In this document: positions 3,183 to 3,201 of the stretch, in pieces
How the letters are laid out: each line of letters begins with the position of its first letter
How positions within the stretch are numbered: position 1 is the stretch's first letter
From: a virus
Lineage: Duplodnaviria > Heunggongvirae > Uroviricota > Caudoviricetes
Reading direction: 5' to 3' (one strand)
DNA length: 12,133 nucleotides
Virus record (IMG/VR): IMGVR_UViG_2703718828_000006
Program-made: the position numbers and the translations under genes
Notes under the pieces: generated by a model
Database searches by the model: none
The model's input: only the letters and a program-made list of their open reading frames with translations
What the model was told of the DNA's origin: nothing

Positions 3183-3201
3183 GTGCACAGCCCCGCCCGC
3201 C
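3183..3201. other. cos-like site (possible cohesive-end / packaging site of P2/P4 type)
   Basis: GTGCACAGCCCCGCCCGCC resembles the reverse complement of the P2/P4 cohesive end as I recall it (GGCGAGGCGGGGAAAGCAC gives GTGCTTTCCCCGCCTCGCC): shared GTGC, CCCCGCC and CGCC blocks with indels between. It sits just past the psu/delta operon, where cos lies in P4. Confidence 0.35.

Follow-up and report, generated by a model that had tools for sequence, protein, structure and literature searches.

Is the GC-rich 19-mer that separates the late genes of this element from its cargo gene a place where its DNA would be cut for packaging and, if so, which helper phage carries the same site? Which helper a satellite can exploit depends on its cos site, and the cos of P2 and P4 also marks the edge of a hotspot of defence genes. 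The 19-mer, GTGCACAGCCCCGCCCGCC, was confirmed at positions 3183-3201 (plus strand) of a sequence of 12,133 nucleotides, the whole of which is called the window below. An earlier reading of its letters, referred to here as the sequence-only reading, had proposed a cos-like site related to the cohesive ends of P2 and P4. We find that the 19-mer is very probably part of a cos site, extending from about 3181 to 3335, of a P4-like satellite of ~11.9 kb at leuX.

Satellites of the P4 type are known to have their cos at the border of a defence hotspot, and the site in the window is an unannotated member of this kind; indeed, the ~150-bp element is unannotated in RefSeq, where 'none' stands under nearly all of the matches listed. 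We found no description of two of its traits. One is a compensated shift of 5 nt within the core. The other is a core that matches no helper found, which breaks the pattern, followed by P4 and by the satellites called group B below, that the cos of a satellite is the cos of its helper.

A P4-like satellite integrated at leuX

The window contains an integrated P4-like satellite at the leuX site of E. coli (Table 1). The 3' end of leuX, TGGTGCCGAAGGCCGGA, has the same letters as the P4 attP core and recurs at 36-51 with a 1-nt deletion; leuX with attL on one side and attR on the other thus bound ~11.9 kb that include a P4-type integrase. This size, against 11.6 kb for P4, is in the packageable range. 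The genes expected of such a satellite (alpha-type primase/helicase, Sid/Psu, Ogr/Delta and AlpA) are all present, and in E. coli MDK6L1 the same element lies between leuX and the remnants of another island.

The late module differs in detail from that of P4. The Sid-like protein is 25% identical to P4 Sid across its full length (E 6e-14), its match to Psu being weaker, and it is the only Sid/Psu-family protein of the element. The sequence-only reading had placed the 19-mer just past psu and delta, as in P4: it does lie just 3' of a sid-like/delta operon, but there is no separate psu, and the gene concerned is Sid-like instead. The single domain of the window's Delta matches both halves of P4 Delta.

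One gene departs from what a satellite would be expected to hold. P4-like satellites are usually described without structural genes, yet an intact gpQ-type portal gene is found inside the att bounds. It bounds the far side of the cargo hotspot, as in helper phages, and the order cos-cargo-portal mirrors the helper layout. Intact copies of the portal gene are present in at least five distinct satellites and, compared with the copy in the window, show dS of 0.47-0.59 and dN/dS of 0.08-0.09. The satellite copies did not form one clade in a neighbor-joining tree of portals; this tree gave no resolution because one copy (L332) is divergent, and nearest-neighbor distances were used instead.

Several smaller features were recorded along the element. 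The 212-aa gene, with a GC content of ~0.29 and lying between int and the AlpA-like gene, had no Pfam or PADLOC match and may be a second cargo slot. Four tandem copies of the 10-bp sequence CAC[A/T]GTATTA occupy 9722-9761, in an AT-rich region near the AlpA-like gene, and direct and inverted repeats of the GGTGGAACAGGTG type are found at 4619-4811, just 3' of the primase gene; by position and kind, the former recall the type-2 repeats of the P4 ori and the latter P4 crr. The sequence ATGCCCC(N4-5)TTATGCCCCCA occurs at 110-130, just inside attR, and at 11794-11814, at the start of int, and by analogy with the annotated arm repeats of P4 attP the two copies are possibly arm-type binding sites of the integrase. 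Dyads of the form TGT-N12-ACA, which we take to be the Ogr/Delta binding-site consensus of P2 and P4 late promoters, number six in the window (2.8 expected). Four of the six form two pairs, one upstream of the sid-like start at 4444 on the minus strand (4479-4496 and 4517-4534) and one upstream of the portal start at 363 on the plus strand (250-267 and 308-325). If the latter are Ogr/Delta sites, the portal gene may be under late control.

Table 1. Features of the satellite and of its cos region, in window coordinates
Feature	Position	Strand	Basis or remark
attR: degenerate leuX 3' end/P4 att core, TGGTGC-GAAGGCCGGA	36-57	.	Repeat search
P2 gpQ-type portal gene, last before attR	363-1388	+	phrog_68 6e-171; TIGR01540 4e-101
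Variable cargo gene, 558 aa, low GC, function unknown	1416-3092	-	Cos-adjacent hotspot
Promoter-like site of cargo gene	3132-3159		Pattern scan
55-bp cos core: proximal TGCATGAAAACC box, spacer, G-rich nicking region, right flank	3181-3235	-	
Candidate cohesive end, register 1, GGCGGGCGGGGCTGTGCAC	3183-3201	-	GGCG.GGCGGGG motif and AAGCGGGCA left flank
Candidate cohesive end, register 2, GGGCAGGCGGGCGGGGCTG, then TGCACGT (degenerate CGCGCGC)	3188-3206	-	Conserved 17-nt distance from TGCATGAAAACC box
Proximal box TGCATGAAAACC, form TGCAT(G/T)AAAACC	3224-3235	-	
Central cos spacer, with small hairpin GCATGAGTCTCATGC then T run	3236-3298	-	Hairpin from pattern scan
Distal GCATG(A) box cluster, putative terminase recognition part (cosB-like)	3299-3335	-	
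Likely intrinsic terminator of sid-like/delta operon, AATCCCGG-loop-CCGGGATT then T's	3364-3390	-	Read from sequence
Single-domain Ogr/Delta late-gene activator	3411-3683	-	Pfam Ogr_Delta 1.1e-16
Sid-like (Sid/Psu family) capsid-size protein	3683-4444	-	phrog_6165 7.8e-95; Pfam Psu 3e-08
Alpha-type primase, 890 aa	4845-7517	-	
DUF5375 gene	Between att sites	-	
AlpA-like gene	Between att sites	-	
212-aa gene, AT-rich	9832-10470	-	Only phrog_30524 (function unknown)
Integrase	10501-11832	-	
tRNA-Leu(CAA), leuX, with attL	11928-12012	-	tRNA and Rfam matches

Architecture and conservation of the cos region

Taken by itself, the 19-mer is indistinct. A single copy of the reverse complement, GGCGGGCGGGGCTGTGCAC, is present in the window; it agrees with the cohesive end of P2 and P4 (GGCGAGGCGGGGAAAGCAC, identical in both) at 12/19 positions without gaps, and at more with two 1-nt indels. 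When the P2 19-mer was slid along both strands of the window, one position scored 14/19, one 13/19 and 12 others 12/19; with 14 positions at 12/19 or better, the flagged 19-mer alone lies within chance. Its left 12-mer, in the half conserved as GGCG[A/T]GGCGGGG, matches at 8/12, or at 11/12 with one gap (hand count), and two registers are possible. Within the lineage, positions 3185, 3192, 3194, 3196 and 3198-3201 are invariant, while 3184, 3186, 3187, 3189, 3195 and 3197 vary, and an exact search of IMG/VR with the 19-mer returned one match only, in another satellite. The resemblance is significant only when the flanks are included.

A core of 55 bp is common to P2-family cos sites according to those passages of PMC5694545 and PMC9122126 that cite Ziermann & Calendar 1990. 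Aligned without gaps, 3181-3235 agrees with this core at 35/55 positions in P2, 33/55 in P4 and 32/55 in Fels-2-type phages. It is the sole best position in the window for the P2 and the Fels-2-type cores (the runner-up for P2 reaches 29/55), and none of 100,000 shuffles attained the score of 35/55 with the P2 core. On the minus strand the window reads ...GGTGCATGAAAACC-ATTCTGTT-AAGCGAAGCGGGCA-GGCGGGCGGGGCTGTGCAC-GT, where P2 and P4 read GCATTAAAACC-N8-AAGCGGGCG-GGCGAGGCGGGGAAAGCAC-[T/C]GCGCGC. The right flank of the window, TGCACGT, equals CGCGCGC at four of seven positions and differs at the three others, CGCGCGC being the commonest form among its relatives.

The homology extends to the order and spacing of the recognition boxes. 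Relative to the proximal box, the window has GCAT starts at -93/-80/-70/0; for P4 and the helper consensus the values are -95/-82/-72/0, and for P2 about -94/-82/-72/0. Five of the 13 copies of GCATGA in the window fall within 107 bp, and at 3299-3329 identity with the cos regions of Fels-2-type helpers is 93.5%. The conserved island, 3181-3328, measures 148 nt compared with ~151 nt in helpers; its central spacer is conserved within the lineage (~0.90 mean pairwise identity, 28 satellites) and cannot be aligned to helpers. The expectation that the locus would align with P2, P4 and other P2-like cos regions was thus borne out, with core, boxes and spacing all homologous; the 19 bp that had been put forward as the cos site proved to be one part of an element of ~150 bp (3181-3335).

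Conservation was examined in 28 distinct satellite relatives from IMG/VR whose delta genes are at least 86% identical. In these, mean pairwise identity is 0.93, 0.95 and 0.78 at the first, second and third codon positions of delta, 0.911 in the non-coding stretch 3202-3361, 0.86 in the 19-mer and 0.29 beyond 3182. Since 0.911 exceeds the 0.779 of delta third positions, the non-coding island evolves more slowly than the adjoining synonymous sites, and is under purifying selection. Directly past 3183, identity falls from ~0.87-0.95 to 0.44 and then 0.25; the conserved backbone thus stops within 1-2 bases of 3183. The homology of most E. coli relatives found by megablast likewise begins at 3182-3185, so that the GC-rich site does stand at the boundary between late genes and cargo, as the sequence-only reading had it. 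The cos core is the last conserved sequence ahead of the variable defence/cargo hotspot, an arrangement already published for P4-like satellites and P2-like phages (PMC9122126).

The cargo protein itself matched nothing above threshold in Pfam, PHROGs, PADLOC or NCBIfam. The P2-like episome CP019275.1 has a homologue, 55% identical, in its own equivalent hotspot between cos and portal, and 417-3088 of the window is collinear with the cargo-plus-portal module of this episome at 70% nucleotide identity. According to a 2026 survey (PMC13586616), hotspot genes are almost never exchanged between P2 and P4, which have no homology at the flanks. Unlike that picture, the sub-lineage of the window has homology on both flanks of the hotspot.

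Could the 19-mer simply be a GC-rich recombination junction at the hotspot edge, or a terminator or promoter, with no role in packaging? It does sit exactly at the recombination boundary, and on its own its match to P2 is equalled or bettered at 13 other places. This explanation leaves unaccounted for a 55-bp core and four boxes that are homologous in sequence, order and spacing to the experimentally defined cos of P2 and P4. Moreover, the terminator of the sid-like/delta operon lies upstream of cos (it was not flagged in a pattern scan), and the promoter-like site of the cargo gene falls in the variable part. Single-strand folding of 3160-3345 revealed no unusual fold (z = -0.36), and Rfam families across the window were limited to the tRNA; on these two grounds a structured RNA or terminator was ruled out for the cos region. 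We therefore hold a junction or transcription signal of this kind to be extremely improbable.

Register of the core and candidate cohesive ends

The lineage differs from P2, P4 and Fels-2-type helpers on both sides of the G-rich motif: on the left AAGCG is duplicated, and on the right 5 nt are missing, so that the spacing between the box and the right flank stays at 36 nt. Counted from the TGCATGAAAACC box, this distance is shared by 53 of the 54 distinct sequences of the lineage and by 100 of the 101 sequences of the P2, P4 or helper type. The core of the lineage reads GGCG[G/T]G[C/G]GGGGCTG followed by YNCGCGC-like bases. The likeness to the P2/P4 cohesive end noted from the letters is real at the scores given above, but the 'internal indels' seen with it are better described as a compensated 5-nt shift. 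Such compensation argues for selection on the geometry between the flanks. It also yields two valid alignments, so that the overhang is ambiguous between 3183-3201 and 3188-3206.

Descent speaks for the first register: with the overhang at 3183-3201, both the GGCG.GGCGGGG motif and the AAGCGGGCA flank of 9 nt are brought into line, and this block also agrees slightly better with the P2 19-mer (12/19, against 11/19 for 3188-3206 by hand alignment). If, on the other hand, terminase nicks by distance from the box and not by the G-rich motif, the overhang would be GGGCAGGCGGGCGGGGCTG, at 3188-3206. The 36-nt spacing from TGCATGAAAACC to YGCGCGC is kept in all groups, the 19 nt of this second register hardly vary within the lineage and immediately precede CGCGCGC, conservation stops 43 nt past the box in helpers and satellites alike, and AGGCGGG lines up with P2 positions 5-11. 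A satellite locus that bears the AAGCG duplication and retains the full helper-type 19-mer weighs against it. On this evidence, we consider an overhang at 3188-3206 quite possible, if short of probable; it refines the main explanation, that of a cos site, and is no alternative to it.

The satellite locus just mentioned (L335, on metagenome contig ERZ781269.53) combines the duplication with the full GGCGTGGCGGGGGCTACGAG, and its box-to-flank distance is 41-42 nt. As its duplication is uncompensated, this locus has the look of an evolutionary link between the two classes of satellite cos. A 6,078-bp gut-metagenome contig (L351, OGHK01005189.1), which carries primase, sid, psu-like and delta genes, has one end immediately after ...GGGCAGGCGTGCGGGGCTG (...GGGGCTG), the predicted end of the second-register overhang; it is the one such case among 61 metagenome contigs. 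This end coincides with the first strain-variable base, which means that an assembly break explains it equally well, a physical DNA end being possible. Among IMG/VR contigs, we found none that ends at a predicted cos end.

Helper and satellite cos cores

P4 uses the terminase of P2 and shares its cos core (PMC9122126). By homology with this pair, the following scheme can be proposed for the satellite of the window. Once the satellite has been excised and replicated, a gpM/gpP-type terminase from a P2-family helper would bind the GCAT boxes, three distal and one proximal, and make staggered nicks in the G-rich region that leave a 5' overhang of ~19 nt, and the satellite DNA would be packaged into helper-derived capsids. 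That the site is cut, which terminase would cut it, and at which phosphodiester bonds (those of 3183-3201 or of 3188-3206) are all predictions drawn from P2 and P4. The 11 ORFs of the window that were scanned include no terminase small-subunit-like gene, and a satellite-encoded specificity factor of the known type is therefore unsupported.

The parallel with P4 is close (NC_001609, junction 11624/1). In both, cos lies 3' of a late operon (sid, delta and psu in P4) and adjoins a variable hotspot; both have three distal GCAT boxes, a TGCAT(T/G)AAAACC box, 36 nt to YGCGCGC and a G-rich nicking region. They differ in the core itself: the P4 19-mer is that of P2, whereas that of the window matches no helper found, and the window has the AAGCG duplication with its compensating loss, as well as distal boxes 2 nt closer. 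They also differ in gene order: in the window it is sid-like, delta, cos, psu is missing, and the late genes share the strand of the primase, which those of P4 do not. The limit of the hotspot is set by the portal gene and attR, not by int. P2 (NC_001895) shares the box layout, and its order of cos, hotspot and portal, the latter pointing towards cos, is mirrored in the window. In contrast to the element of the window, P2 is a complete phage with its own terminase.

A permissive blastn search with 3160-3420 against 50,697 phage records gave weak matches, those in the core and distal boxes being in P2-like phages. In four P2-like loci that were fetched, the match lay between gpA/dinI and the hotspot/portal, that is, at the position of the P2 cos. 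The Felsduovirus, Gegevirus and Elveevirus records with cos matches are among those whose portals are nearest to that of the window (88-93% amino acid identity). Fels-2-type cos reads ...TGCATGTCTATGCCGCATGAAATCGCATGA...GGTGCATGAAAACCACTACACAAAGCGGGCA-GGCGTGGCGGGGATACGAG-CGCGCGC, and in 71 distinct helper sequences the ~150-bp island is the sole conserved non-coding block, stopping after CGCGCGC. We drew helper loci from the 80 P2-like loci with portals closest to that of the window; the core GGCGTGGCGGGG[A/C]TACGAG followed by CGCGCGC was present in all 70 in which a core was found.

In the Fels-2-type representatives (Felsduovirus RE-2010, Gegevirus ST437-OXA245phi4.1, Elveevirus MLG42 and the E. 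coli episome p13P477T-2), the proximal box and the AAGCGGGCA flank are identical to those of the window, and the distal block TGCATGTCTATG.CGCATGAAA.CGCATGA is identical or nearly so. Their portals are ~82-93% identical to that of the satellite at the amino acid level; the value varies with the phage and with inclusion or omission of the divergent N-terminus. One of these phages also has, where the window has its cargo gene, a homologue of that gene. Box sequence and the satellite's own portal thus make the closest helper type Fels-2-like, rather than P2 proper. The core nevertheless differs, agreeing at only 32/55. The suggestion that divergence from P2 reflects a different helper terminase thus holds in part, through the GCAT boxes and the portal; no helper with the same core was found in INPHARED, IMG/VR or the E. 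coli genomes.

Other P4-like satellites behave as expected. Those of group B (IMG/VR loci such as L165 and L176), with delta genes 62-74% identical to that of the window, have the same type of late module and a cos at the hotspot edge. Unlike the window lineage, they carry a core, GGCGTGGCGGGG[C/G]TACGAG followed by CGCGCGC, that is close to the helper's (50/55 to the Fels-2 type) and so conform to the classical expectation of a satellite cos copied from the helper. In the window lineage, cos is not that of any helper found, whereas P4 cos is that of P2.

The lineage itself is widespread. The 230-bp region is present in 833 of 5,426 complete E. coli genomes (15%), at 866 places. All 866 matches extend beyond the 55-bp core, the weakest one still spanning 58% of the query; there is hence no bare core in another setting, and the weakest place, the one examined, is a satellite. 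A degenerate search of IMG/VR for the lineage core gave 25 matches, none with a terminase and nearly all with delta just upstream. A further 73 metagenome and IMG/VR loci likewise included none with a terminase; delta lies directly upstream in 66 of the 73, and the seven others are truncated or degraded. No phage in INPHARED carries the lineage core. In E. coli genomes, IMG/VR and INPHARED, for which the negative result is strong, no matching helper core was found. A scan of bacterial genomes with GCGGGCNGGCGGGCGGGG was uninformative, as this GC-rich pattern matched Streptomyces and other high-GC genomes among the matches listed. Non-identical cos cores do co-reside: the isolate genome IMG 2751185936 contains both a lineage satellite (L156/L378, core GGGCAGGCGGGCGGGCCAG, then CGCGCGC) and a Fels-2-type phage (L234, core GGCGTGGCGGGGATACGAG).

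Two explanations may be weighed for a core seen in satellites and in no helper of INPHARED, IMG/VR, E. coli or the metagenome loci. The lineage may descend from a packageable satellite whose core drifted from the cos of every helper until it was no longer cut, leaving the element to persist in the chromosome as an island of defence genes. The core does agree with those of helpers at just 32-36/55, several positions of the 19-mer and of the right flank vary among close relatives, and the P4-like Sp2 of O157 Sakai is absent from the list of prophages with detected packaged DNA (PMC2669165). Drift of a vestigial site does not fit well with a non-coding island more conserved than neighboring synonymous sites, nor with a 5-nt loss that restored the 36-nt spacing, implying selection on geometry, while box spacing was kept; the satellite genes, moreover, are intact, in a lineage found in 15% of E. 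coli genomes. We regard a vestigial cos as improbable. Alternatively, this widespread lineage would use a 'private' cos core, shared with no helper, in which the motif is shifted by 5 nt within an unchanged frame of boxes; we put this forward tentatively, as a rather unlikely reading in its full form.

A cos under selection and unlike every helper cos found makes substrate choice and cutting by P2-family terminases testable, all the more as the ends are predicted at two specific positions separated by 5 nt. Annotation of cos also provides a precise anchor for delimiting satellite hotspots. If satellites with a private core are packaged, P2-family terminases must nick by box geometry and not by reading the overhang. 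Were the private core confirmed, the cos of a satellite would be free to diverge, which could limit recombination with the helper or let the satellite compete for terminase, and in some members the satellite-encoded portal might assist.
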